Shown here in pieces: positions 8,217 through 20,288 of a DNA stretch of 52,588 nt (its first letter is position 1; every line of letters begins with the position of its first letter). Below the pieces are notes generated by a model, which was given only the letters and a program-made list of their open reading frames with translations, made no database searches and had not been told where the DNA came from. This stretch comes from Desulfobacteraceae bacterium (GTDB lineage: Bacteria; Desulfobacterota; Desulfobacteria; Desulfobacterales; JAABSP01), in NCBI GenBank assembly GCA_011390065.1, contig JAABTD010000008.1, positions 1-52,588 of the forward strand, in the 5' to 3' direction. Both the position numbers and the translations under genes were made by a program.

Positions 8217-10259
8217 ATGGTTAAGAGAGAAAAAGATTCCGGTAGGATGGTGTTGCGGTCGGCATGGAAGAAGCTGCTGCTTCTCTCCTGTGTGCTGCTG
8301 CTGATCGGCGGCTGCACCAAGATTCTCAATGATGCGGAACTTGCCGATCATCGGGAGAAGCAGGCCAGGAACGATCTGGAAGTGCTCAAGCCGCCCATGG
8401 ACATCAATTTTGAACAACCCCTTACCCTCGACGACGTCATCCAGATCGGGCTGCACAACAACCTGGAGGTCCGGATCGCCAAGCTGAACCAGGAGATATC
8501 CGACAAGGAGACGCTGGCGCAGCGCCTCAGGATGCTGCCCGGTTTGACGGCGGACGCCCGGTTCGAATATCGGGATCGGCTCCGGAAAAGCGACGTCTAC
8601 AATTGGCGACTGGATGAAGACCAGAAGGATTACACCGTCTCCGAACTCAAGGACAGTCTGCGGGGCAACCTCTCCCTGACCTGGAACGTCCTGGACACCG
8701 CCATGGCCTACGTCCGATCTAACGCCCTGGAGATGCAGGAACAGGTGCTGGAACGGAAACGGATCCGACAGGCCCAGCAATTGGCGCTGGACATTACGGA
8801 AGCCTACTGGCAGGCGGCGGCTCTGGAAGATGCCCTCGATTACGTTCATGCGGTCGAAAAGCGGCTCAAGGCCGTGAAGCGGAAAATCGACAGCGCGGTA
8901 GACGCCAGGGACCTTGATCGCATGGATGCCGCCGAGGCGGAACTTCGCCTCAAGGAACTGGAGTTGACCATCCGGCAGTTGCAGGCCAACCTCTCCTCCT
9001 CCCGGCTGGAACTCTCCCGGCTGCTGGGATTCAACCAGAACGTCCAGTATACGCTGGCCCGGCCGCCCATCAAGCCCATCGTGGCGGCCCTCCCGCATAC
9101 CAAGGAGCTGGACATCGACTCCCTGGAAGAATACGCACTGATCCACCGGCCTGAACTCTATCAGAGCGACATCCAGGTGATGATCCAGAAAGAGGAAGCC
9201 AAACGGGCTTTCCTCAACCTGTTTCCAGGGGTCAGCTTTTTCGCCGCTACGCATTATGACGATAACCGGCTCCTTTACGCCAACACCTGGAATTCGGTGG
9301 GGGCGGGCGTCGGATGGAATCTTCTGGAAATTCCCGCCAACCTGGCCCGTTTGAAGGGTCAGGAGAAAACCATCGATATGGCCGAGGCTCAGCGCCTCAT
9401 GATGACCGTGGGCGTCATTACCCAGGTCCACATCGGGTTGCTGGATTACGCCATCAAGGTGGATCGTTTCCGGTTGCTGGAGGAAACCTATCAACTGGCG
9501 GCCAATCTGCTGGATATGGCCGAGGCCAAGAACAGCGCGGGGCGCCTGCCCGAACTGGCGGTAACACAGCGATATCTTGAGGAGATGGCCGCGAAATTGA
9601 GACGGGACGAGGCGGTGGTGGATATGCTGGTGGCCCATAAACGACTCTGCGTGAGCGTCGGCATGGCGCCCCAGGAATGCGACGGCGCCATGCTGGCCGG
9701 CGGGGCCGGCACTGAATTCGATACCACCCTGGCCGGGGACTTCACCTCCGGTACTTCGACGGATCTGTATGGATCAGAGACCGGGGGGTTCAACAGCACC
9801 GACCTTGGCAGCGGCGATATCGGAACCGGCGCGGGCGTCAGCAACCCGTCAGGGGCTGGCGCCTGGTCGGACAGTTCCGAGTTCGGCGCCGATCTTCCGC
9901 CGGCGGAATGGGAACGTTCCGCAGGCGCGGGTGAAGCTGCGGCCGGATCGAGGTCGGCGGATATGAACGATGAAGGATGGGCCAGCGGCGCATCGGACCG
10001 GTTTCTGTGGAAGGTTCAGATGGGCGCTTTCACTCAGCCCGGGGGCCCCAGCAAGCGGATGGACCAGATCCAGAATATGGATTTACGGTTGCTGGACAAC
10101 CGGGATGCCCGCATCACCACCAAGCGCCTCGGCCCCAGTTTGTTCAACCGGGTCCGGGTGATGGGGCTGACCGAACCCCAGGCAAAAACGCTGGCTCAGG
10201 ATCTGCAGCAAAAGGGGATGGAGTACTGGGTCATCCCGCCGGACAGCAAGCACTGGTAG
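8217..10259 (+). CDS. TolC-family outer-membrane efflux lipoprotein with G/S/T-rich linker and C-terminal SPOR-like domain
   Basis: Lipobox LIGGC. OEP motifs PLTLDDVIQIGLHNNLE, LSLTWNVLD and ALIHRPEL. The C-terminus WKVQMGAF...RVRVMGL..EPQAKTLAQDL resembles SPOR. Alternative start ATG 8247. Confidence 0.85.
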   Translation: MVKREKDSGRMVLRSAWKKLLLLSCVLLLIGGCTKILNDAELADHREKQARNDLEVLKPPMDINFEQPLTLDDVIQIGLHNNLEVRIAKLNQEISDKETLAQRLRMLPGLTADARFEYRDRLRKSDVYNWRLDEDQKDYTVSELKDSLRGNLSLTWNVLDTAMAYVRSNALEMQEQVLERKRIRQAQQLALDITEAYWQAAALEDALDYVHAVEKRLKAVKRKIDSAVDARDLDRMDAAEAELRLKELELTIRQLQANLSSSRLELSRLLGFNQNVQYTLARPPIKPIVAALPHTKELDIDSLEEYALIHRPELYQSDIQVMIQKEEAKRAFLNLFPGVSFFAATHYDDNRLLYANTWNSVGAGVGWNLLEIPANLARLKGQEKTIDMAEAQRLMMTVGVITQVHIGLLDYAIKVDRFRLLEETYQLAANLLDMAEAKNSAGRLPELAVTQRYLEEMAAKLRRDEAVVDMLVAHKRLCVSVGMAPQECDGAMLAGGAGTEFDTTLAGDFTSGTSTDLYGSETGGFNSTDLGSGDIGTGAGVSNPSGAGAWSDSSEFGADLPPAEWERSAGAGEAAAGSRSADMNDEGWASGASDRFLWKVQMGAFTQPGGPSKRMDQIQNMDLRLLDNRDARITTKRLGPSLFNRVRVMGLTEPQAKTLAQDLQQKGMEYWVIPPDSKHW

Positions 10260-10337: not shown

Positions 10338-13300
10338 ATGTTGCACCTGATGAAACTGGAAGACAGGATCGTCCTGGACGGAGCCGCGGTCGGAGAGGCG
10401 ATCGATCACGCCATCGACCACGATGCGGTACAGGCCGAAGCGCAGACGGACGCGTCGTTCTTTCCGGATGAGGGGCCTGAAGCGACTGCATTCGCTGAAG
10501 CGGCCGCAGGCGCCGCGGCGCTCCTGGCTGATCCCGAACCTGCGGCGGAGCCGGTGGAGGTGGTGCTGATCTCCGACGACCTCTCCGATGTCGACGCACT
10601 GGCGGACGCCGTCGATCCGGATGCCGAAGTGATCGTCTATGACGCCGACGGGGAGACCGCCGAGGAGGTCCTGGGCCGGGTGACCGCCCTTTCGGAGGAA
10701 TTGGGTCGCCCCATCGAATCCGTCACCATCCTCTCCCATGGCGGCGACGGGACGTTCCGCCTGGGCGCCGACGATATCTCGGCGGACACATTCGGCGACG
10801 CTGAAGGGGCATGGCGACAGTTGGGCTCGGTGCTGGCGGAGGAAGGACAGATCTATATCTATGGGTGCAGCGTCTCCGGGTCCGGCCATGACCTGCTGAC
10901 CTCCCTGGCCGACGCCACCGGCGCCAGCGTTTACGCTTCCGACGACGTGACGGGCGCGGGCGGGGACTGGCAGTTGGAGGTCGAAACCGGGCACAGCGCA
11001 GGCGCCGACGCGCCGATCAATATCGCGGCCCTATCCGGCTACACGGGAACCCTGGCCTCTCCCACCATCAGCGGCGCGCCTCCCACAGTTGTTCAACAGG
11101 GCGAGGGCTACAGCTTCACACCCACCGCCGACGATGCGGATGGCGACATCGACCAGTTCATCATTTCCAATCCACCCTCCTGGGCGGATTTCGATCCCCA
11201 GACGGGCGCCCTGTCCGGCACGCCCGGAAACGATGATGTGGGGCAGGACTATTCGGATATCCGAATCGGCGTGGTGGACAGCGAGGGGAACGTCGCCCGG
11301 CTCGATCCCTTTTCCATTACGGTGACCAACGTCAATGATGCCCCCACCATTAGCGGCACGCCCGCGGAAAACATTCAGGAGGGGCAACTCTACTCCTTCA
11401 CGCCCAACGCCGCTGATCCCGATTTCAAGGTGGACCCCGACGAGGAGCTGACCTTCAGCATCGACCTGGACGCGGGCGCGCTGCCCGCTTGGCTGGCTTT
11501 CGACGCCGCCACGGGCCGGTTGCAGGGGACGCCGCCGGTGGGACTGGCGGATACGACCTATTCCAATATCGTTATCAGGGTCACGGATGCGGCCGGCGTA
11601 TCCGCTTCTTTGAGCGCCTTCGACATCACGGTGACGCAGCTCAATACCGAGCCCACCATATCGTTACCCGCCGGGAGCGATCCGACAACCGCCACGGAAG
11701 ACAGCCTCTATTCCTTCACCCCCCTCGCGGACGATGCGGAGGACCCGGACAGCGCCCTGAGATTCAGCATTTCCAATCAGCCGAGCTGGGCGAATTTCAA
11801 CGAATTGACCGGACAACTGTCCGGAACGCCGGACAACAGCGATGTGGGCGATTATAACAACATCGTCATTACTGTCGTAGATTCCGGAGGGCTCAGCTCT
11901 TCGTTGGCGCCCTTCGACATCACAGTGGCTAATGACCCGGATGCACCGACCATCAGCGGCACCCCCGCGAAAACGATTCAGGAAGGGACCGACTTCAGCT
12001 TCACCCCCACGATCACCGATCCGGATGCAAATGAATCGTTCGATTTCTCCCTGCGATGGGGAACTGAGCCGGCGCCGCCCGCCTGGGTGACGTTCAATCC
12101 GGACACCGGCGCCATCAGCGGCACGCCGGCGGATGCCGATACCGGCCAGTACAATGATATCGAAATTACCGTGACGGATAAAGACGGGTTGACCGACTCG
12201 ATGACATTCGACCTCACTGTCGTTGATAAAAACAACACCCCCACCATCAGCGGCACGCCGGATATGAGCATCGATCAGGGCGAAGCCTACAGTTTTACCC
12301 CCACCGCCGACGATGTGGACGGGGATGCGCTGGAGTTCAGCATTTCCAACCTGCCGGCGTGGGCGGATTTCGATCCCACCGACGGTACACTCTCAGGCAC
12401 GCCGGAAAACAGCGATGTGGGGCTGTATGAGGACATCGCCATCACAGTGACCGATGAGACCGGATTGAGCGCCACCCTGTCCTCTTTCAGCATCACGGTC
12501 AATAATGTCAACGATGCCCCCAGGATCACCGGAACATCGAGGCAAACCGTCCAGGAGAACTCGGATTACAGCTTCACCCCGACCGTAAGTGATATCGATA
12601 TGCAGGTCGACCCTCAGTTCTACCAGGAAGAGTTGACCTTTTCGATTAACCAGGAAGCATTGCCGGGGTGGCTCAGCTTCAACCCGGAAACTGGAACCCT
12701 GTCGGGGACGCCGACTCCTGATGATCAGGGGCTTACCGATCCCATAACAATTACTGTAGAAGACAAGGCCGGGGCGACGGCGCAATTGACATTTCAGATC
12801 AACGTGGTTCCGCTGAATACGCCGCCGACCATTGAAGGAACGCCGGACGTCACCGTCGACCAAGGCGAGACCTATCGTTTCATTCCTCAGAATGTGTCTG
12901 ATCTGGAGGATCCGGATGAATTTTTGAGGTTCAGTATATCCAATCAGCCCGCCTGGGCTGAATTTAACCAGGAAACCGGAGAACTGTCCGGGGCCCCCAC
13001 CAACGACGACGTCGGCATTTATCGGGACATCGTCATTACGGTGACCGACACCGGCGGCTTGGGCACTTCACTGGACCCGTTCACTCTTGAGGTCGTCAAT
13101 GTCAATGACGACCCGGGAATCAAGGGCGTACCCCAGAACAAAATCCGGATTGGCAATGAATACGTTTTCATCCCTACAGGGTTTGACGTCGACCTGAATC
13201 AGAGAGCCGGCGATGTGCCCGGCATCATCGATCCGGATGAGACCCTTCGGTTCGAGATCGAAAATCTGCCGCCCTGGGCGACATTCGACGAGACCACAGG

Positions 13301-15020
13301 TCAGATTCTCGGCACACCCGATATGGACAATTTAGGCGCTGAATACCTGGTGGATGATCAGACCAACATCGTCGCGCGTTATCCCATTACCATTACCGTG
13401 ATCGACGCCGATGGGGCCACCGCAGAACTTGTATACAATCTCGATGTGATCGCCGGCGGACCGAACCTGGGTCCGGGAAATACCGCCGAGTACATAGAAA
13501 ACGGCGATCCTCTGCTCGTCCATGATCTTATCACCATTGAAAACAGCGCCGGCATCAACATCACCGGATCAACCATTCAGATTTCAGATGGTTATCAGAT
13601 GGACCCCGACAGCGCCGACAAACTGCTGTTTGGCGGGATGGGGGCGGGCGACAATCAGTTCGCCCTGGTCTTTGATGATACGGGCAATGCCATAACCGGC
13701 GTTTGGGATGCAACCACTGGCGTCTTGACGCTCGACGGCAGGGCTACGGCGGCGGAATACGAGACGGCGCTGCGCTCCGTCAGATATGTCCATATCGGAG
13801 AGGATCCGGTTGATGGCGCGCGTGAACTGACCTATACGCTTACCGATGCACTGGGCGACACCTTTACGTCCGCAGATGATCCCGCCGTTCAGTTCATCGT
13901 CGATGTGGACGCCATCAACGATGCCCCTGACCTTGAACCCGAGACCCGGACGATTTTCTACACCGGGACCGGCGAGATCGTATCGGTCGCGCCTGAAATC
14001 ACTTTGACGGATGTGGACGATGAGCAGATGACCCGGGCCGTCATCACGATTTCCGACGGCACATTTCGCGCGGGCGAAGACGTCCTCGATTTCGCCGCAA
14101 CCGACGGCATCATCGGCGTTTGGGATGCCGCGTCAGGGACCCTGACATTGACGGCGTCGGGCGGGACGGCCGACATCAACACATTCCAGAATGCATTGCG
14201 GACCGTGACCTACCAGAACATCAGCGGTTCCCCGGATCAGGGCGTCCGGAACGTCACCATCACCGTTACTGACAATAATTCCGGAGGAGACGGCTCGGGA
14301 AGGCTGTTTGGCGCACAGGAATTGGGCGGCCCCATGAGCGATGATGTCCAGCGAGCGCTTAATGTCTCCATCTCGCCTCCTCACCGTCCCCCCTACGAAC
14401 CGCCCCCCTTCGAACGCCCCCCCTTCGAGCCCATCAGCCGGCCCGAAGGCGAAGGCCCCGACGGGCCGGGTCTCGGCCCGGTCAACTTCCCCGGCGACGT
14501 CCAGGACACCGGCCAATTACAGGATGTGGTCCGTGCATTGTCCGCCCCCTGCGGCGACGACGTGCTCTACGAGTGCTGCACACTGGAGGAAGCCCTGCGC
14601 ATCGGGTGCCGTTTCGCTCCGGCCATCGATCCCGATTCCCGACTGTGCAACATCACCTGGGACTATATGACCAACAGCCTGGGATGGGAAGATCCCTTTG
14701 TTCCCCGCATCGACGGTCGATATTTTAACGAAGAACTCGACCTGTTCAACCGGCTGTTTATGAAGGATGTGGAAGGCGATCCCGGCTTTCACCTTGAACC
14801 CGGCGCCTTTGCCGAGGCCTTCGGCATGACGGAAGAGGTTGAATTCGCAAAGTATAACCGGGATGAAGAACACGATGTCTATTCCCAGTTCTCCATGCAG
14901 GAAGCCCAGGGCTTCAACGACATGGCCCCCGGCGAACTGAAGGCAGCCTTTTTCAAGGGACGGGAAGGACTGGATAAGCCGTCCCGGTGGGATAACGACA
15001 GTGATGCCAGCGAGTGCTGA
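10338..15020 (+). CDS. Large repetitive exported/surface protein: LEPRxLL-type N-terminal motif, DUF4347, 8 He_PIG/dystroglycan-type cadherin-like repeats, 2 larger Ig-like repeats, Pro linker, Cys-containing C-terminal domain
   Basis: GGAGGAG RBS and N-terminal LEDRIVLDG. DUF4347 motifs ILSHG, IYIYGC and ASDDVTGAGGDWQLE. Repeats NxxPTISGTP..YSFTP..W..F...TG.LSGTP. No Sec signal peptide and no RTX nonapeptides seen. Confidence 0.88.
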   Translation: MLHLMKLEDRIVLDGAAVGEAIDHAIDHDAVQAEAQTDASFFPDEGPEATAFAEAAAGAAALLADPEPAAEPVEVVLISDDLSDVDALADAVDPDAEVIVYDADGETAEEVLGRVTALSEELGRPIESVTILSHGGDGTFRLGADDISADTFGDAEGAWRQLGSVLAEEGQIYIYGCSVSGSGHDLLTSLADATGASVYASDDVTGAGGDWQLEVETGHSAGADAPINIAALSGYTGTLASPTISGAPPTVVQQGEGYSFTPTADDADGDIDQFIISNPPSWADFDPQTGALSGTPGNDDVGQDYSDIRIGVVDSEGNVARLDPFSITVTNVNDAPTISGTPAENIQEGQLYSFTPNAADPDFKVDPDEELTFSIDLDAGALPAWLAFDAATGRLQGTPPVGLADTTYSNIVIRVTDAAGVSASLSAFDITVTQLNTEPTISLPAGSDPTTATEDSLYSFTPLADDAEDPDSALRFSISNQPSWANFNELTGQLSGTPDNSDVGDYNNIVITVVDSGGLSSSLAPFDITVANDPDAPTISGTPAKTIQEGTDFSFTPTITDPDANESFDFSLRWGTEPAPPAWVTFNPDTGAISGTPADADTGQYNDIEITVTDKDGLTDSMTFDLTVVDKNNTPTISGTPDMSIDQGEAYSFTPTADDVDGDALEFSISNLPAWADFDPTDGTLSGTPENSDVGLYEDIAITVTDETGLSATLSSFSITVNNVNDAPRITGTSRQTVQENSDYSFTPTVSDIDMQVDPQFYQEELTFSINQEALPGWLSFNPETGTLSGTPTPDDQGLTDPITITVEDKAGATAQLTFQINVVPLNTPPTIEGTPDVTVDQGETYRFIPQNVSDLEDPDEFLRFSISNQPAWAEFNQETGELSGAPTNDDVGIYRDIVITVTDTGGLGTSLDPFTLEVVNVNDDPGIKGVPQNKIRIGNEYVFIPTGFDVDLNQRAGDVPGIIDPDETLRFEIENLPPWATFDETTGQILGTPDMDNLGAEYLVDDQTNIVARYPITITVIDADGATAELVYNLDVIAGGPNLGPGNTAEYIENGDPLLVHDLITIENSAGINITGSTIQISDGYQMDPDSADKLLFGGMGAGDNQFALVFDDTGNAITGVWDATTGVLTLDGRATAAEYETALRSVRYVHIGEDPVDGARELTYTLTDALGDTFTSADDPAVQFIVDVDAINDAPDLEPETRTIFYTGTGEIVSVAPEITLTDVDDEQMTRAVITISDGTFRAGEDVLDFAATDGIIGVWDAASGTLTLTASGGTADINTFQNALRTVTYQNISGSPDQGVRNVTITVTDNNSGGDGSGRLFGAQELGGPMSDDVQRALNVSISPPHRPPYEPPPFERPPFEPISRPEGEGPDGPGLGPVNFPGDVQDTGQLQDVVRALSAPCGDDVLYECCTLEEALRIGCRFAPAIDPDSRLCNITWDYMTNSLGWEDPFVPRIDGRYFNEELDLFNRLFMKDVEGDPGFHLEPGAFAEAFGMTEEVEFAKYNRDEEHDVYSQFSMQEAQGFNDMAPGELKAAFFKGREGLDKPSRWDNDSDASEC
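11058..13460 (+). repeat. Eight tandem ~95-115 aa Ig/cadherin-like repeats within the large protein
   Basis: The translation shows recurring PTISGTP / YSFTP / PxWxxFxxxTG / ITVTD motifs. Boundaries are approximate. Confidence 0.9.
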
Positions 15021-15060
15021 TGTAACACTTTTTGAACATTGACGATTGTTGTGTTTTAAG

Positions 15061-15101
15061 GGGAGTTCAGGATCATTGTGTTTGTTCCTGAACTCCCTTT
15101 T
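15061..15101 (+). terminator. Intrinsic terminator after the large repeat protein
   Basis: 12-bp stem GGGAGTTCAGGA (15061-15072) / TCCTGAACTCCC (15086-15097), followed by TTTT. Confidence 0.75.
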
Positions 15102-15268
15102 GTTCAAGCTTTCGGCAAGGAATTAAAAGCTAAACATTAAGAAAAAAGTTGATTTTTAAAAAATTAGGAAAAATTTTAAAAACAGATATATGAAATCAGG
15201 ATAGAACGTCGTGCCAAAAAAAAACTCAAACATAACATACGGATAATTAAAGAATTTTTGCTTTTATC

Positions 15269-15547
15269 ATGAAAGTTAACCTTACAAATAAATATTTTCT
15301 TTATCGACTGAGAGTAAGGGAATATGAGTTAGAAAAAGTTGAATCGATTTTAAGAACATCTTCAGAGGTTTATTTTGATAGCGACACTGGGCGCAATATT
15401 AAGGTTGGCAAACATGACAATGTTTTGATTATTGTTGCGTATGATGTCGAACAAGATGGCTCAACAACACCTGTGACAGTTTATCAAACTTCCCGAAAAC
15501 AAATAAATTATTACCTGAAAAAAGAGAGGTTCCATGTCAAAGCATAA
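15269..15547 (+). CDS. DUF4258/BrnT-like putative toxin (RelE-fold RNase)
   Basis: 92 aa, basic and AT-rich, with LIIVAYDVE...TPVTVY. It overlaps a downstream DUF2283 gene, a typical TA arrangement. Confidence 0.65.
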   Translation: MKVNLTNKYFLYRLRVREYELEKVESILRTSSEVYFDSDTGRNIKVGKHDNVLIIVAYDVEQDGSTTPVTVYQTSRKQINYYLKKERFHVKA

Positions 15548-15755
15548 AATGAATTATTTTTCCGACGAGGATGTGTTGCACATACTTATAGAAGAAGGAC
15601 GAGAATCGGAATGTCGAGAATTGGCTCCCAATATAACGGCGGAATTGAATGAACGAGGTGAATTGATGGGTATTGAAATCTTAAACGCGAGCGAGTTCAT
15701 ACAAAATATTGTGCTTGAACAAGCTGGTTTAAAAGATTTAAAGATGGCAAGCTGA
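15534..15755 (+). CDS. DUF2283 putative antitoxin
   Basis: The pattern YFSDEDVLHI...ITAELNERGELMGIEILNAS matches DUF2283; 73 aa, acidic. Confidence 0.85.
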   Translation: MSKHKMNYFSDEDVLHILIEEGRESECRELAPNITAELNERGELMGIEILNASEFIQNIVLEQAGLKDLKMAS

Positions 15756-15912
15756 TTATGGAATGCGCAATTAAAAGCTCGCAATATTGTAAAGAATTTT
15801 CCAAAGAATCGTTTGAAAGCCAAATTATTGCCGACCCTCCGTTATATCCGCAAATCAGCGCCGCGGACAGGCGAACGCTGAGGCGGTCGGAATGGGAAGA
15901 AGTTGATTTCGG

Positions 15913-18057
15913 GTGAAAGAAGCACCCAAAAAACTCAAAGACCACCTCAAAACCCCCTGGCGCGGCCTCCGCCGGGACCTGATCCTCCATCCCGGTCCTT
16001 TGGACCGCGACGGCCACCGCTCCTGGGTCCTGGAAGATCCGGTCCGCGGCAACAACTATCGTCTGGGGTATGCGGAAGGGGAGCTGATCTACCGGCTCAC
16101 CGTGGAGCCCGACCTGGACAAGGCCGTGGCCAATCTCTACGCCACTACGCCCCTGCGTCCGTCCGTCGAGGAGATCCTCTCTTTCATCACCATGCTCCAG
16201 AACGAATCGCTGGCGCGGCTCTCGGAAGAAGAAGTGGTGAGACGGGAGTCCGCCCCGGGAGCGGGCCGAAAGCCGTCTTTTTTTCAACGCATTCTCCAGG
16301 GCGCCATTTTTTTTCGCGTCCCCCTCATCCGGCCGGACCGGTTTCTGAGCCGGACGCTTCCCTACGTCTCAACCCTCTGGTCCCCGGCGGCCCGGTGGTG
16401 TTATCTTTTGATCGGTCTGTTCGGTTTGATCCTCACCCTGCCGGAACTGGAACTCTACCTCTCCACCGTCAATTATCTGTTTACGCCCCAGGGGGCCGCG
16501 GCCTTTGTCCTGTGTCTGGCACTGCTGAAGATCGGCCATGAATTCGCCCACGGCTTTGCGGGCAAGGCCATGGGGCTCCACATCCGCTCCATGGGGATCT
16601 TCTTCATTGTGTTCTGGCCACTGCTCTATACCGACACCACCGATGCCTGGAAGATCCCCGACCGGCGGCGGCGGATGTGGATCAGCGGGGCCGGGGTCCT
16701 CTTTGAACTCACGGTGGCGGGCATGGCCCTTTTTCTCTGGGCTCTCCTGCCGGACGGCATCTTCCGGAGCCTGATGTTCTTTCTCTCCGGGACCTCGCTC
16801 GTCTCATCGGTCCTGATCAATCTCAACCCTTTCATGCGGTACGACGGCTATTACCTGCTCATGGACTGGTGGGGCATCGACAACCTCCGGTCACGGGCAT
16901 TCGCCATGCTGCGCCATGCCCTGCGGCGAAAGCTGCTGGGGTGGAAAGGACCGATCCCGGAAATTCATCCCCATCGCCGGAGCTTGATCGTTTATGCCGT
17001 TTTCGCCCTCATCTACCGGCTTTTCGTGGGGATCGCCATTGCCCTGGCGGTTTATTACCTCTTTTTCCCGGCCCTGGGGGTGCTTGTTTTCCTCGTGGAG
17101 ATATGGATGTTTTTTGTCCGGCCCGGCATCGGCGAAGTCAAGGCGGTGATCCAGAACCGGCATCTCATCGGATCCAAAACCCGGACGGCGGCCACCGGCA
17201 TTGCCGCAGCTTTATTGGTGGCGCTGGTTTTCGCGCCCCTGCCCCGTTTCCAGCACCTGCCCGGCCTGCTGCTTTATCACAACGCCTCGGCGGTGACCGC
17301 GCCAGCGGACGGGCGGATCGCCGCTCCCATGCCGGCTGAGAACCGGGCCGTAGATTTCGGCGAGCGGATCATCCACATCGAAAACGATCAGTTGCGCCAT
17401 GATGCCGACAACCTGAAGTTCGATCTGGATTCACTCCAGGCCCGGCTTCGGTCGGTGGGCGGCGGGGGGGAGCAGGGCGCCTACCGGGCCTGGCTCCAGG
17501 CGGAACTCTTTCGGGTGGAAGCGGCCAAAGAAAAGCTGGATGAAGCCATTGCCATGCTGGAGATCCACGCCCCGCTGGGCGGCCGCATCACGGATGTCAA
17601 CCCGGACCTTTACCAGGGCGCTTTTGTAAGCAAGGGGACGTATCTGTTTTCCGTCGGAACCCCCCGACACTGGGAGCTGGAGGCCTACGCCCATGAGGGG
17701 AAGGCTGCTCATCTGAAGGATGAGATCGACGCTTCGGTGAGGGTTCGATTGCCGAACCCGGAGGCGCCGGCGATCCGCGCCAGATTCCGGAACCGGAGTC
17801 GATTTCCGGTTTATCGGCTTCCCAACGAGAGTCTCCTGGATGTGGCCGGGGGGCCCATTGTTTCAGATGGGGATCGGAATGGAAATCGTCCCAAAGACGC
17901 GCATTTCGCCCTTGCTTTCGATATCCTTCAACCGCTTCCGGAATGGCTGCCCCACGGGACCCCCTGCTGGATCTGGCTCCGGGGCGAAAGCGGGTCGCTG
18001 GCGGGACGGTTTCTGGGCGACCTGTGGCGGAATGTGACCGAAAGAGGACTTTTTTAA
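15913..18057 (+). CDS. Site-2 protease (peptidase M50) fused to a HlyD-type membrane-fusion (biotinyl-lipoyl/coiled-coil/beta-barrel) domain
   Basis: HEFAH (HExxH, 16537-16551) and NLNPFMRYDG (NxxPxxxxDG) lie in a multi-TM region. The C-terminal half has VTAPADGRI...IHAPLGGRI lipoyl half-motifs around a coiled coil. Confidence 0.85.
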   Translation: MKEAPKKLKDHLKTPWRGLRRDLILHPGPLDRDGHRSWVLEDPVRGNNYRLGYAEGELIYRLTVEPDLDKAVANLYATTPLRPSVEEILSFITMLQNESLARLSEEEVVRRESAPGAGRKPSFFQRILQGAIFFRVPLIRPDRFLSRTLPYVSTLWSPAARWCYLLIGLFGLILTLPELELYLSTVNYLFTPQGAAAFVLCLALLKIGHEFAHGFAGKAMGLHIRSMGIFFIVFWPLLYTDTTDAWKIPDRRRRMWISGAGVLFELTVAGMALFLWALLPDGIFRSLMFFLSGTSLVSSVLINLNPFMRYDGYYLLMDWWGIDNLRSRAFAMLRHALRRKLLGWKGPIPEIHPHRRSLIVYAVFALIYRLFVGIAIALAVYYLFFPALGVLVFLVEIWMFFVRPGIGEVKAVIQNRHLIGSKTRTAATGIAAALLVALVFAPLPRFQHLPGLLLYHNASAVTAPADGRIAAPMPAENRAVDFGERIIHIENDQLRHDADNLKFDLDSLQARLRSVGGGGEQGAYRAWLQAELFRVEAAKEKLDEAIAMLEIHAPLGGRITDVNPDLYQGAFVSKGTYLFSVGTPRHWELEAYAHEGKAAHLKDEIDASVRVRLPNPEAPAIRARFRNRSRFPVYRLPNESLLDVAGGPIVSDGDRNGNRPKDAHFALAFDILQPLPEWLPHGTPCWIWLRGESGSLAGRFLGDLWRNVTERGLF

Positions 18058-18088: not shown

Positions 18089-18865
18089 GTGAAAGATATG
18101 AAACAGCGATGGAAGGTCATTTTTACGGCAATGATTCTGGCGACCTGGGGATTGTCTTCCGCCCTTACGGCGACAGCCCAGCTTCAGGAAGGTCAGGAAA
18201 CGGCATCCGGCGAGGCCTATCCGGCCATCTTCGAAGCGACCCGGCAGGCGGTGCTGTCCGCGGAACGCGCCGGAGTGCTCAGCAGCCTCGCTTACGAGGT
18301 GGGATCAACCGTCAAAAAAGGAGAGATCATCGCTCAGGTGGAAACCGGCGAACTGGCCCTGCAGAAAAAACGGGCCGAACTTTCCCGCAAACACCTGGGC
18401 GTCAAAGTGGACAATCTGACCCGGCTCAGCAAACAGGGGCTGGCGACCAACGAAGAAGTGGCCGAGGCCCGCATGCAGCGGGACGTGGTCCGGACCGACA
18501 TCGACATCATCCAGCGTCAGATCGCCAACTCCTACATCCGCGCGCCTTACGCCTGCATCGTGGTCCGCCGTCACGTTCAACCCCACGAGTGGGTGACTGC
18601 CGGTCAGCCGGTGGTGGAAGTGGTGGACATAAAGCAACTGCGGGCCGTGGCCAATATCCCGTCCGCTTCGGCAGTGCGGTTGAACACCGGCGATGAGCAT
18701 TCCTTTTACGTTCATGATCTCGACAGAACCGTGACCGGCGTCGTCCGGGCGGTGGTTCCGGTGGTGGACGAATTGAGCAATACGGCCGAGGTGGTCTGGA
18801 CGATCCAGGAGACCGGGGACGCCCTGCTTTCCGGCATGAAGGGGGAAGTGCTCATTGACCGCTAG
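18089..18865 (+). CDS. Efflux periplasmic adaptor (membrane fusion protein)
   Basis: N-terminal signal/anchor; LSAERAGVL..GSTVKKGEIIA, IRAPYACIV and LLSGMKGEV motifs. Alternative start ATG 18098. Confidence 0.88.
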   Translation: MKDMKQRWKVIFTAMILATWGLSSALTATAQLQEGQETASGEAYPAIFEATRQAVLSAERAGVLSSLAYEVGSTVKKGEIIAQVETGELALQKKRAELSRKHLGVKVDNLTRLSKQGLATNEEVAEARMQRDVVRTDIDIIQRQIANSYIRAPYACIVVRRHVQPHEWVTAGQPVVEVVDIKQLRAVANIPSASAVRLNTGDEHSFYVHDLDRTVTGVVRAVVPVVDELSNTAEVVWTIQETGDALLSGMKGEVLIDR

Positions 18866-20288
18866 CCCCGCGACGCCGGACATGGACGCCGGGCAGAACG
18901 GCCCGCAACGCATCTCGACAGGATCCGGCCAGCAGGGACCGGTCCACACCGGCATGCGGCCGGGCAGCGACAGGGTCCTGGCCCGCTTTATCCGGCTCTG
19001 TTCGGCGGTGCTGGCGACGCCTGTACCCCAGGAAGCCGCGGCCCTCATCGTCAACCGGATTGCCGAAATCGCCCCCATGGATCGCGCCGTGCTGGTGCGC
19101 CTGCATGGCAAGGGCGCCATCCAGGCGGTGACCGGGGGCGGAAAAACAGCCCAGGACAGCCGCTTCGCCGATGCAGTGGAAAGCGTCCGAAAACAGTACC
19201 GGGACCGGCAGACGGCTCTGATCCTGCCGCCGGCGGCCGACGGAGGCCGGATGAACGCGGCCCTGCACACTGTCCAGTCCGCCATGGGGGGAACCCAGAT
19301 CCTGTGGCTTCCGCTCTGGATGGACCGGGAGGGGACGGCGCCCCCGGCTTACGCCCTGTGGCTGGAGCGGTGGCGGAACCGGCCCTGGGAGAAGTCGGAC
19401 GTGGAACTGCTGGGTCATGCGGCCCTGTTCATGGCGCATGGACTGGCCCGGCCCCGGGCCGAGGCCAATCGGTCCAGGAAGCGGTGGGTCCGGTCCGCGG
19501 CGGCCTTGTTGCTGATCCTGCTGATGGCCCTGCCCGTGACCTCCAATGTGACGGCGCCGGTGCGGGTCGCTCCGGATCGTCCCCACCACATTTTCGCTCC
19601 CATGGACGGCATCCTCAAAGAACTCCATGTCCAGCCGGGGCAGTGGGTCAAAAAGAACGACGTCCTGTTTCGCTATGACGCCCGGGTGCTGGAAAAGCGG
19701 CTGGACGAAGCGCATCGGAACGTGGCCGTGGCCCGGGCCAAGCTGGCCAAGCTGGAGGGCGCGGCCCATCGGGACCGGGAGGCCCGGGCGGAACTGCCGG
19801 TCCAGCGGCTGGAGGTGGAAAGAGCCGAAGCGGATGCCGCGTTTTACGCCAGGCAGCGATCCCGGGCCGCAGTGCGCAGCGGACAGGCCGGGGTCGTTGT
19901 ACTGGATGATCCCGATGCCCTGGTGGGCGCGGCGCTTCAGACCGGTCAGGCGGTGCTGAGCGTGGCGGATCCGGATCGGACCAAGCTCCGGCTGTGGGTT
20001 CCGGCCAGCGATGTGGGGTTTATCCGGAAGGGCGCCCGGGCCGCCGCCCGGTTGGACAGCGCGCCGTTTCGCAGCATTCCGGCGGTGATCGCCCGGGTGG
20101 GCTTCGACATTCAGCTGTCGCCGGAAGGGGTCCCATCGGTCATGGCCGAGGCCATCTGGACCGGGGAAGGCGCAGAGGTCCAGCCGGGTCAGAAAGGCGC
20201 CGCCAAAATTTACGGGGATTCCACCTTCCTCGGAATGCAGATTCTCAGAAAGCCCCTGATTGCTTTACGGTCGCTCATCGGGTTTTAG
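18855..20288 (+). CDS. HlyD-family periplasmic adaptor with N-terminal cytoplasmic GAF-like region
   Basis: An N-terminal soluble domain of ~210 aa, one TM helix, then IFAPMDGILKELHVQPGQWVKKNDVLF, a coiled coil and VQPGQKGAAKIYG. The GAF-like call is tentative. Confidence 0.8.
   Translation: MTASPATPDMDAGQNGPQRISTGSGQQGPVHTGMRPGSDRVLARFIRLCSAVLATPVPQEAAALIVNRIAEIAPMDRAVLVRLHGKGAIQAVTGGGKTAQDSRFADAVESVRKQYRDRQTALILPPAADGGRMNAALHTVQSAMGGTQILWLPLWMDREGTAPPAYALWLERWRNRPWEKSDVELLGHAALFMAHGLARPRAEANRSRKRWVRSAAALLLILLMALPVTSNVTAPVRVAPDRPHHIFAPMDGILKELHVQPGQWVKKNDVLFRYDARVLEKRLDEAHRNVAVARAKLAKLEGAAHRDREARAELPVQRLEVERAEADAAFYARQRSRAAVRSGQAGVVVLDDPDALVGAALQTGQAVLSVADPDRTKLRLWVPASDVGFIRKGARAAARLDSAPFRSIPAVIARVGFDIQLSPEGVPSVMAEAIWTGEGAEVQPGQKGAAKIYGDSTFLGMQILRKPLIALRSLIGF

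Follow-up and report, generated by a model that had tools for sequence, protein, structure and literature searches.

The stretch of DNA analyzed here (the window, meaning the whole of its 52,588 nt) belongs to a Desulfobacteraceae bacterium (assembly GCA_011390065.1, contig JAABTD010000008.1, positions 1 to 52,588, forward strand). Between 8217 and 20288 on the plus strand, it contained genes for a TolC-like outer-membrane factor and a 1560-residue repetitive protein, an AT-rich stretch, and genes for a fusion protein, a short adaptor, and a long adaptor, in this order. The fusion protein (15913..18057, plus strand, 714 residues, GTG start), which is the main subject of this work, was resolved by translation, Pfam, NCBIfam, and a full-length structural model into an N-terminal domain resembling a recognition element (RRE) of peptides that are made by ribosomes and modified after translation (RiPPs), an M50 protease core in the membrane, and a periplasmic adaptor part. 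The fusion most likely reads a tag at the start of a giant protein, for which the repetitive protein encoded just before it is the candidate, and probably clips this tag.

The sequence-only reading of this DNA had proposed that the fusion begins with a soluble domain of ~100 residues, composed of three strands followed by three helices and resembling PqqD and other RREs. Both parts of this description were borne out, the first by two AlphaFold2 models together with the absence of any hydrophobic segment from the first ~100 residues in a hydropathy profile, and the second by fold, profile-profile homology, and language-model features. The domain (residues ~19-100, 15967..16212, plus strand) is predicted to be cytoplasmic. 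Related loci were obtained from a pattern scan that covered 185,579 species with one genome each, in which ~5000 matching stretches were estimated and 80 loci were returned; tblastn recovered the same N-terminal domain in 59 of these 80 loci. The domain model that was based on the resulting alignment of 60 sequences (the window and 59 loci) had a predicted local distance difference test score (pLDDT) of 79, with ~90 in the core, and its topology was repeated in the full-length model (strands 24-27, 38-42, and 47-51; helices 53-64, 68-78, and 85-97).

A structure search independent of Foldseek, over 48,161 chains, returned only two chains at Z of at least 8, and both were leader-binding RREs of lasso peptides, namely TbiB1 (5v1u_A; Z 10.0, root-mean-square deviation 2.6, 82 of 84 residues aligned) and TfuB1 (6jx3_B; Z 8.9, 83 of 85 residues aligned). 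The structures of these two proteins were solved with their leader peptides, and their identity to the window domain was 13-17%. Thirteen further RRE-bearing RiPP enzymes were found at Z 5.2-7.5 (ThcOx, TigE, PqqD, TbtB, MibB, CteB, SuiB, LynD, MadB, PbtF, MccB, NisB, and McbBCD). A profile of 30 PF05402 (PqqD) proteins, taken from 151 genomes that share the window's phylum, was compared with the domain alignment by hhalign, a check of the HHpred type that the earlier reading had called for. The 69 aligned columns, which ran from the second strand to the third helix, gave a probability of 94.1% (E 1.2e-7). The same profile selected residues 37-107 alone from the independent full-length alignment (84.6%, E 6.9e-6), and gave 0.4% against an alignment of the passenger tags, which was the negative control. 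In the ESM Atlas, which compares language-model features, PqqD-bearing clusters accounted for 16 of the 30 named matches (top score 0.93). Furthermore, the NCBIfam model lasso_PqqD_Strm was matched by one of the 56 family members. The top-conserved positions were R20, D22, W38, D42-P43-V44-R45, residues 48-52 of β3, and F/M94, L95, and L100 of helix 3, with peaks of conservation in the β2-β3 hairpin, β3, and helix 3. In solved RRE-leader complexes, the third strand and the third helix form the groove that holds the leader, and the conserved positions of the fusion lie in this canonical groove.

Some of the searches weigh against this assignment. Proteins that are unrelated to RiPPs (Rv2067c, 2xdv, PKMT2, NGO1945, NovN, and NO66) were also found at Z 5.3-7.0, and winged helices are common. 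The Foldseek comparison suggested by the earlier reading supported it by rank, as RRE proteins filled the top seven rows against the PDB (TbiB1 chains, TfuB1, and CteB; SuiB and PqqD were lower), but no match of the domain reached E ≤0.001. Pfam assigned no family to residues 1-149 up to E 10, the PF05402 model included, and the PDB-sequence profile search gave one insignificant match, to TfuB1 (E 0.91). With both sides considered, the N-terminal domain of the fusion is, with high confidence, an RRE.

The membrane core (residues ~158-440, 16384..17232, plus strand) was identified as an M50 or site-2 protease by PF02163, hydropathy, and the full-length model, and comprised seven long helices and a β-hairpin at 227-240. 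The full-length AlphaFold2 model, which was based on a 56-sequence alignment, had a pLDDT of 89.4 and a predicted template modeling score of 0.72. In this model, the core helices spanned residues 158-190, 192-219, 251-278, 283-303, 355-383, 386-414, and 422-440, and a conserved juxtamembrane strand-helix segment was located between the RRE and the long helices. Both zinc-site motifs were found intact by translation, as had been stated from the sequence alone. These were the zinc-binding and catalytic motif HEFAH (residues 209-213, 16537..16551, within the predicted helix 192-219) and the second M50 motif NLNPFMRYDG (residues 303-312, 16819..16848), which fits the NxxPxxxxDG pattern of the third metal ligand. 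H209, E210, H213, N303, N305, and D311 were invariant in 56/56 relatives, which reached down to 29% identity and belonged to several phyla. Intact and conserved motifs of this kind fit a proteolytic role.

The Pfam family Peptidase_M50 (PF02163) matched the core with 28.3 bits (gathering cut-off 27.2), while the best NCBIfam match of the core was the model daptide_HExxH (NF041824; 143.2 bits, residues 99-397), below the equivalog cut-off of 300 bits. Daptide_HExxH was also the best NCBIfam match of the core in all 56 relatives (best E 1.4e-54), and 50 of them matched the YydH/LiaK epipeptide protease model. By sequence, the protease core is closest to RiPP leader peptidases. A paper on the daptides describes a leader peptidase that removes an N-terminal leader after its recognition by an RRE (PMC10036551), and a review lists EpeP, TglG, and TmoG as further RiPP-linked M50 enzymes (PMC10885120). 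The daptide peptidases MpaP/DapP and the window fusion have the order of RRE and M50 in common. In contrast, the daptide enzymes carry no adaptor and act on short precursors in Gram-positive RiPP clusters, whereas the window fusion has TolC and adaptors as partners and a substrate candidate of 1560 residues (relatives up to 19,211 residues); its match also starts after the first 66 positions of the NF041824 model. The gene-cluster context of the daptides, with short precursors and modifying enzymes, was not found at the window locus.

The C-terminal part of the fusion (17233..18054, plus strand) was assigned to the periplasmic adaptors of the HlyD or membrane fusion protein type by Pfam (HlyD_3, 33.2 bits; cut-off 22.2), the model, and Foldseek. 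Its α-hairpin (residues 492-547, 17386-17553) was modeled as helices 492-514 and 520-547. Foldseek gave 68 matches at E ≤0.001 for this part, with chain D of TMexCD1-TOprJ1 at the top (1.7e-11), followed by MexA, MacA, and AcrA (E 1e-10 to 1e-11). As modeled, it is a true periplasmic adaptor, and the presence of seven membrane helices between the two ends of the protein fits an RRE on the cytoplasmic side and an adaptor in the periplasm.

The other cassette genes encode envelope components as well. The TolC-like outer-membrane factor (8217..10259, plus strand, 680 residues) had an N-terminal hydrophobic signal segment in the hydropathy profile and matched Pfam OEP in two stretches (120.9 bits). 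The NCBIfam model type_I_sec_TolC covered its residues 68-459 below the cut-off, and ~220 C-terminal residues were left unexplained by this TolC-type model. The short adaptor (18089..18865, plus strand, 258 residues) had an N-terminal hydrophobic segment and matched Pfam HlyD_3 and HlyD_D23, as well as NCBIfam RND_mfp over the cut-off (125.3 bits). Family matches and hydropathy divided the long adaptor (18855..20288, plus strand, 477 residues) into ~200 cytoplasmic residues, a membrane helix near 210-236, and a periplasmic part of the HlyD type. Its N-terminal 220 residues (18855-19514) had no Pfam match and no detectable GAF domain.

The passenger, or cargo candidate (10338..15020, plus strand, 1560 residues), is a repetitive, surface-protein-like open reading frame (ORF) with Pfam matches to He_PIG (eight stretches), DUF4347, RibLong, and Big_9. 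It contained no hydrophobic segment anywhere (no 19-residue window at a Kyte-Doolittle mean of at least 1.6), and no RTX-type family was among its Pfam matches; an uncharacterized C-terminal signal is possible. The ORF begins with MLHLMKLEDRIVLDGAAV, and positions 10356-10382 encode LEDRIVLDG exactly as the sequence-only reading had reported. This stretch is part of the N-terminal tag MLHLMK-LEDRIVLDGA (10338..10385, plus strand), which translation and the tag alignment identified as a divergent LEPR-XLL motif, with L7-A16 at 10356-10385. In a gap-free alignment of 34 tags (the window and 33 relatives), L7, E8, R10, and D14 were invariant and A16 was at least 90% conserved; the conserved core L-E-x-R-h-h-h-(D/S) is present in the passenger as LEDRIVLD (residues 7-14). 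The NCBIfam model LEPR-XLL (NF012209, 24 positions, cut-off 17 bits) matched 8 of 12 N-termini at E ≤1, two of which were over the cut-off.

An acidic linker rich in Ala, Glu, and Asp (10386..10559, plus strand, from direct reading of the sequence) connects the tag with the first folded domain, and comparable low-complexity stretches follow the tag in relatives. The first folded domain is DUF4347 (PF14252; residues 75-239, 10560..11054, plus strand), which was detected by Pfam (108.9 bits) and by the genome search. In the window's own genome, which is 98.6% complete, there was one fusion, one DUF4347 protein, and one match of the leader profile, all at this locus. The last 270 residues of the passenger (14208-15017) were Cys-rich and conserved in L001, L003, and L004, three of the related loci, and had no Pfam match. 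LEPR-XLL-tagged giant surface proteins reached up to 19,211 residues in the sampled genomes. A 24-residue N-terminal LEPRxLL domain has been described in a 2026 preprint for two giant proteins of the Chlorochromatium epibiont, with 36,806 and 20,647 residues, and the accessible text of this preprint does not mention M50 (10.64898/2026.03.19.712371).

A word-index search found 380 relatives of the fusion, all with generic names only. The 80 loci from the pattern scan spanned Desulfobacterota, Nitrospirota, Planctomycetota, and Alpha-, Beta-, and Gammaproteobacteria, and the carriers included the cultivable genera Pseudomonas, Azospirillum, Rhizobium, Komagataeibacter, and Halomonas. The TolC-like protein, short adaptor, long adaptor, and fusion occurred together in 51/80 loci, and in 30/36 of the loci with at least 9 kb of flank on both sides. 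The cassette of TolC, short adaptor, long adaptor, and RRE-M50-adaptor fusion is widespread, and it accompanies giant proteins with LExR(I/L)xx(D/S)(G/A) at their start. By regular expression, giant ORFs starting with LExR(I/M/L/V)x(F/L)D(G/A)A were located beside the cassette in 33/80 loci, after three chance matches (L005, L015, and L070) had been dropped by eye; variants such as HEKRIVLDG, which L005 carries in addition to these 33, are missed by the expression. Among four genomes without a tag in the flank of the locus, three had tagged giant ORFs (2561, 5821, and 4108 residues) that start just beyond the flank examined, as read from the contig coordinates.

This constant company bears on the possibility that the fusion is a signaling protease. 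In that case, the N-terminal domain would be a generic DNA-binding or regulatory winged helix, and intramembrane proteolysis would control expression of the adhesin locus and leave the passenger untouched. Site-2 proteases are best known from signaling (RseP and SpoIVFB), and the structure search did return classical DNA-binding winged helices (Fur, the OmpR/PhoB family, ToxR, and CadC), with Z 3.7-4.7. However, the RREs scored far higher and covered the whole domain, including its three-stranded sheet, and homology to PqqD was supported by hhalign. Transport is indicated by the fused adaptor and by the TolC and adaptor genes that constantly accompany it, and the conserved parts of the cassette included neither a sigma nor an anti-sigma gene. 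A signaling role is therefore regarded as very unlikely.

To examine the coupling between tag and fusion, 301 genomes were sampled evenly across the phylum of the window. Twenty genomes harbored a fusion that includes the adaptor (17 whole, three cut or partial), and 20 harbored DUF4347. Both were present in 14 genomes, against 1.3 expected; the Fisher value of 3e-15 for this association overstates the case because related genomes are not independent. According to coordinates and ORF lengths, DUF4347 and the fusion were on one contig within ~12 kb in 10/14 of the double carriers. The tag was found in all 14 double carriers, in six by profile and in eight (nine ORFs) by direct reading. The leader profile matched six of the 301 genomes, each with a fusion, and none of the 281 fusion-less genomes. 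Strong DUF4347 proteins were present in four fusion-less genomes, and among these one had a Sec-type signal, one had a signal anchor, and one had neither signal nor tag. Of the earlier description of the passenger start as a LEPRxLL leader, a conserved N-terminal tag with genomic coupling to the fusion is supported, and a match of the window's own tag to the family model is not.

Other observations do not fit a strict pairing of tag and fusion, or fit it in another way. The window's own tag had no match to NF012209 (0 families). Six of the 20 fusion-bearing genomes had no DUF4347 match, and the leader profile found nothing in four such genomes that were tested, in one of which the neighboring giant ORF runs off the contig and its start is unreadable. 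G301, a complete-looking genome, contained the cassette and no tag at E ≤0.1. On the other hand, the fusion-less genome G124 (94% complete) encoded a DUF4347 protein with the tag-like LESRVLLSGG. Shared descent of neighboring genes alone could also produce both the coupling of tag and fusion and the joint diversification of tag and RRE. As further observations on the arrangement, L013 and L018 each had a single cassette between two tagged giant ORFs on opposite strands, and in the genome G179 one tagged ORF was located between two fusion genes. These arrangements suggest that one machine may serve several cargos, and the reverse.

Proteins with the same RRE and M50 parts but no adaptor offer a further explanation for the fusion. 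L092:3862-5559 and L093:3890-5590 encode proteins of 565-566 residues that match this part of the fusion alone, and they adjoin genes for radical-SAM, YcaO, and ThcOx-like nitroreductase proteins in the same phylum; genes of these types are classical for RiPP maturation, and the neighborhoods are probable RiPP clusters. Such paralogues also count in favor of an evolutionary link between the fusion's protease and RiPP maturation. The first ~140 residues of both proteins weakly resembled a histidine-kinase-like ATPase domain, below the cut-off. By analogy with such clusters, the RRE and M50 parts in the window could mature a small RiPP-like peptide encoded nearby, with the giant protein an unrelated neighbor that leaves by another route. 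However, small ORFs between the passenger and fusion genes are confined to the AT-rich insert, the passenger gene abuts the fusion gene in L003, no gene for a RiPP-modifying enzyme was present in the cassette, and the conserved motif is carried by the giant ORFs themselves in the 33 loci mentioned above. This explanation appears highly improbable.

The AT-rich insert between the passenger and fusion genes (15020-15800) had a GC content of 0.29-0.37, compared with ~0.6 around it. It contained two overlapping small ORFs, one of 92 residues without a family match (15269-15547) and one of 73 residues with a match to DUF2283 (15534-15755; E 5.9e-14). Both were considered as RiPP precursors and rejected in view of these family results and their location in the insert. 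Parts of the insert were 93-97% identical in L001 and L002, the loci of the two closest relatives, and the two ORFs may together form a small mobile element or a pair of the toxin-antitoxin kind. Right after the stop codon of the passenger gene, there was a terminator-like hairpin with a 15-bp stem followed by UUUUGUU (15058..15105, plus strand; minimum free energy -27.2 kcal/mol, z -5.6). None of 200 shuffles folded equally well, and the consensus scan did not list this hairpin. Its position suggests that the passenger and fusion genes may be separate transcripts here. A polyamine aminopropyltransferase gene upstream and an AlgH-like gene downstream of the cassette are unrelated to it according to Pfam and NCBIfam.

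A sister subfamily of the fusion was distinguished by an RRE with a 'QDH-like' turn, which was paired with LExR(L/V)LLS(A/G)D tags in 4/4 pairs. When 34 pairs of tag and RRE were compared, D at tag position 8 occurred with a 'DP' turn in 29/30 pairs and S with the 'QDH-like' turn in 4/4 pairs; this covariation was not counted as evidence of contact because it follows a single subfamily split. Directly after the sister fusion, an ORF of ~680 residues resembling SecA was found in G201, G034, and G255, and G160 had two such cases. In one related locus, the representative of this ORF contained SecA_DEAD, preprotein cross-linking, and P-loop domains (Pfam). Giant ORFs of 19,211, 15,080, and 9,417 residues (G201:C2:24602-88485; also G255:C1 and G034:C1) begin with a basic stretch followed by LE(R/N/K)R(L/V)LLS(A/G)D, and each is located just upstream of a fusion gene with a SecA-like gene behind it. 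Among the indirect arguments that cassettes of this type move proteins, we regard the SecA-like preprotein motor of the sister subfamily as the strongest.

The window cassette itself has no comparable motor, and this is the main gap in the mechanism. The SecA-like search found no such motor gene in the 80 loci or in the window, and the only SecA of the window's genome (840 residues) is encoded on another contig. No gene for an ABC (ATP-binding cassette) protein or another ATPase was seen in the cassette. When the 80 loci were searched for Walker-A and LSGGQ, three had an ABC-like ORF, each at least 2 kb from the cassette and none inside it. Export by the window cassette would thus proceed without a visible motor.

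Taken together, the domain order, the neighboring genes, and the tag suggest that the fusion (15913-18057) would be the subunit that recognizes and processes the substrate in a TolC-linked envelope machine without an ATPase, whose remaining parts would be the TolC-like pore, the short adaptor, and the long adaptor. The cytoplasmic RRE would capture the passenger tag LEDRIVLDGA, likely as an added strand beside β3 and against helix 3, the mode known from solved complexes of RREs with leaders. We infer this binding, and with it the placement of the passenger's N-terminus at the adjoining M50 active site, where the tag would probably be cleaved off. The fused adaptor, together with the two other adaptors, would link this inner-membrane site to the TolC-like channel, and the passenger, which has no Sec signal, would exit the cell N-terminus first; we infer this direction of transport, as well as a source of energy for it. 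The fusion may be described as a putative RRE-guided site-2 leader peptidase that was co-opted by a TolC-linked envelope machine with giant proteins as its cargo. We consider this series of capture by the RRE, removal of the tag by the M50 site, and export of the passenger N-terminus first through adaptors and TolC-like pore to be somewhat more probable than all other explanations combined. The sequence-only reading had spoken of RiPP-like logic applied to a giant protein, which is a fair description as far as the anatomy is concerned (RRE, intact M50 site, tag, and no Sec-type segment).

For none of the LEPR-XLL proteins does the searchable literature document cleavage. The RRE could read the tag while the membrane domain acts as a docking site or conduit, so that the tag is left uncut and kept on the exported protein. 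The cleavage site is not readable from the sequences, and a transport role has already been proposed for membrane domains of this kind. The invariance of six metal-site residues in all 56 relatives across several phyla is nevertheless hard to explain without catalysis, which makes an uncut tag quite unlikely.

The RRE could also bind the tag while the M50 site acts after export, as a regulated switch for release, retention, or quality control that frees or degrades an adhesin whose N-terminus is held at the machine. A similar logic is followed by LapG, which cuts the retention module of LapA. The cytoplasmic, sensor-like N-terminal domain of the long adaptor suggests regulation. In a sister cassette, the long-adaptor counterpart (L089:6249-8189) contained a GAF domain at the equivalent place (Pfam), which hints at control of the machine by a ligand. 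The long flexible linker and the folded DUF4347 that follow the tag could act as a plug, and conserved catalytic residues fit any proteolytic role. However, the nearest relatives of the protease are leader peptidases of maturation, an RRE predicted to be cytoplasmic would meet the tag before export and not after it, and the GAF domain could not be detected in the window's own long adaptor. A release switch is accordingly held to be unlikely.

Several known systems share parts of this proposed arrangement. In lasso peptide biosynthesis, the B1 RRE hands the leader to the B2 leader peptidase, and TbiB1 and TfuB1 were the best whole-domain structural matches of the window RRE. These B1 proteins, however, have no link to secretion, and their partner is a soluble cysteine protease, whereas the RRE of the window is joined to a membrane metalloprotease. 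In C39-ABC exporters, such as CvaB with CvaA and TolC, an N-terminal leader is read and removed by a built-in protease, and an adaptor and TolC are used. The analogy to these exporters that was drawn by the sequence-only reading is apt with regard to function, but the window cassette lacks both a C39 domain and an ABC ATPase; an RRE would perform the recognition, and a zinc enzyme within the membrane is the protease. The type 1 systems for giant adhesins (LapA-LapBCE, SiiE-SiiCDF, and RTX) likewise combine repetitive Ig-like surface proteins with neighboring genes of the adaptor and TolC types. They rely on a C-terminal signal and an ABC transporter, whereas the conserved signal-like element is N-terminal in the window and no dedicated ABC transporter gene was present between or beside the cassette genes there. 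SpoIVFB belongs to the M50 site-2 proteases and cuts the N-terminal pro-sequence off pro-sigma-K, which is not an integral membrane protein. A short N-terminal extension would thus be the M50 substrate in both cases, although SpoIVFB acts in sporulation signaling, without recognition by an RRE and without an adaptor or TolC.

RRE-site-2-protease fusions are known from the daptides, and the adaptor-fused version for giant proteins was not found in print; no description of an RRE-M50-adaptor fusion or of its cassette was found in the searchable literature, which did not cover supplements and subscription journals. It is possible, although doubtful at present, that the cassette represents a distinct ABC-independent secretion pathway of Gram-negative bacteria. 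In such a pathway, the RRE would read the LEPR-XLL tag as it emerges, the M50 site would clip it, and the protein would be threaded N-terminus first into a tunnel of adaptors and TolC. The drive would come from the SecA-like motor in one subfamily, and from housekeeping SecA, translation, or folding outside the cell in the ATPase-less subfamily. If the proposed role of the fusion is true, the RRE would be extended from the biosynthesis of small peptides to protein secretion, and a route to TolC with an N-terminal signal and without an ABC transporter would be added to those known. It would also offer a starting point from which giant adhesins could be annotated and manipulated.

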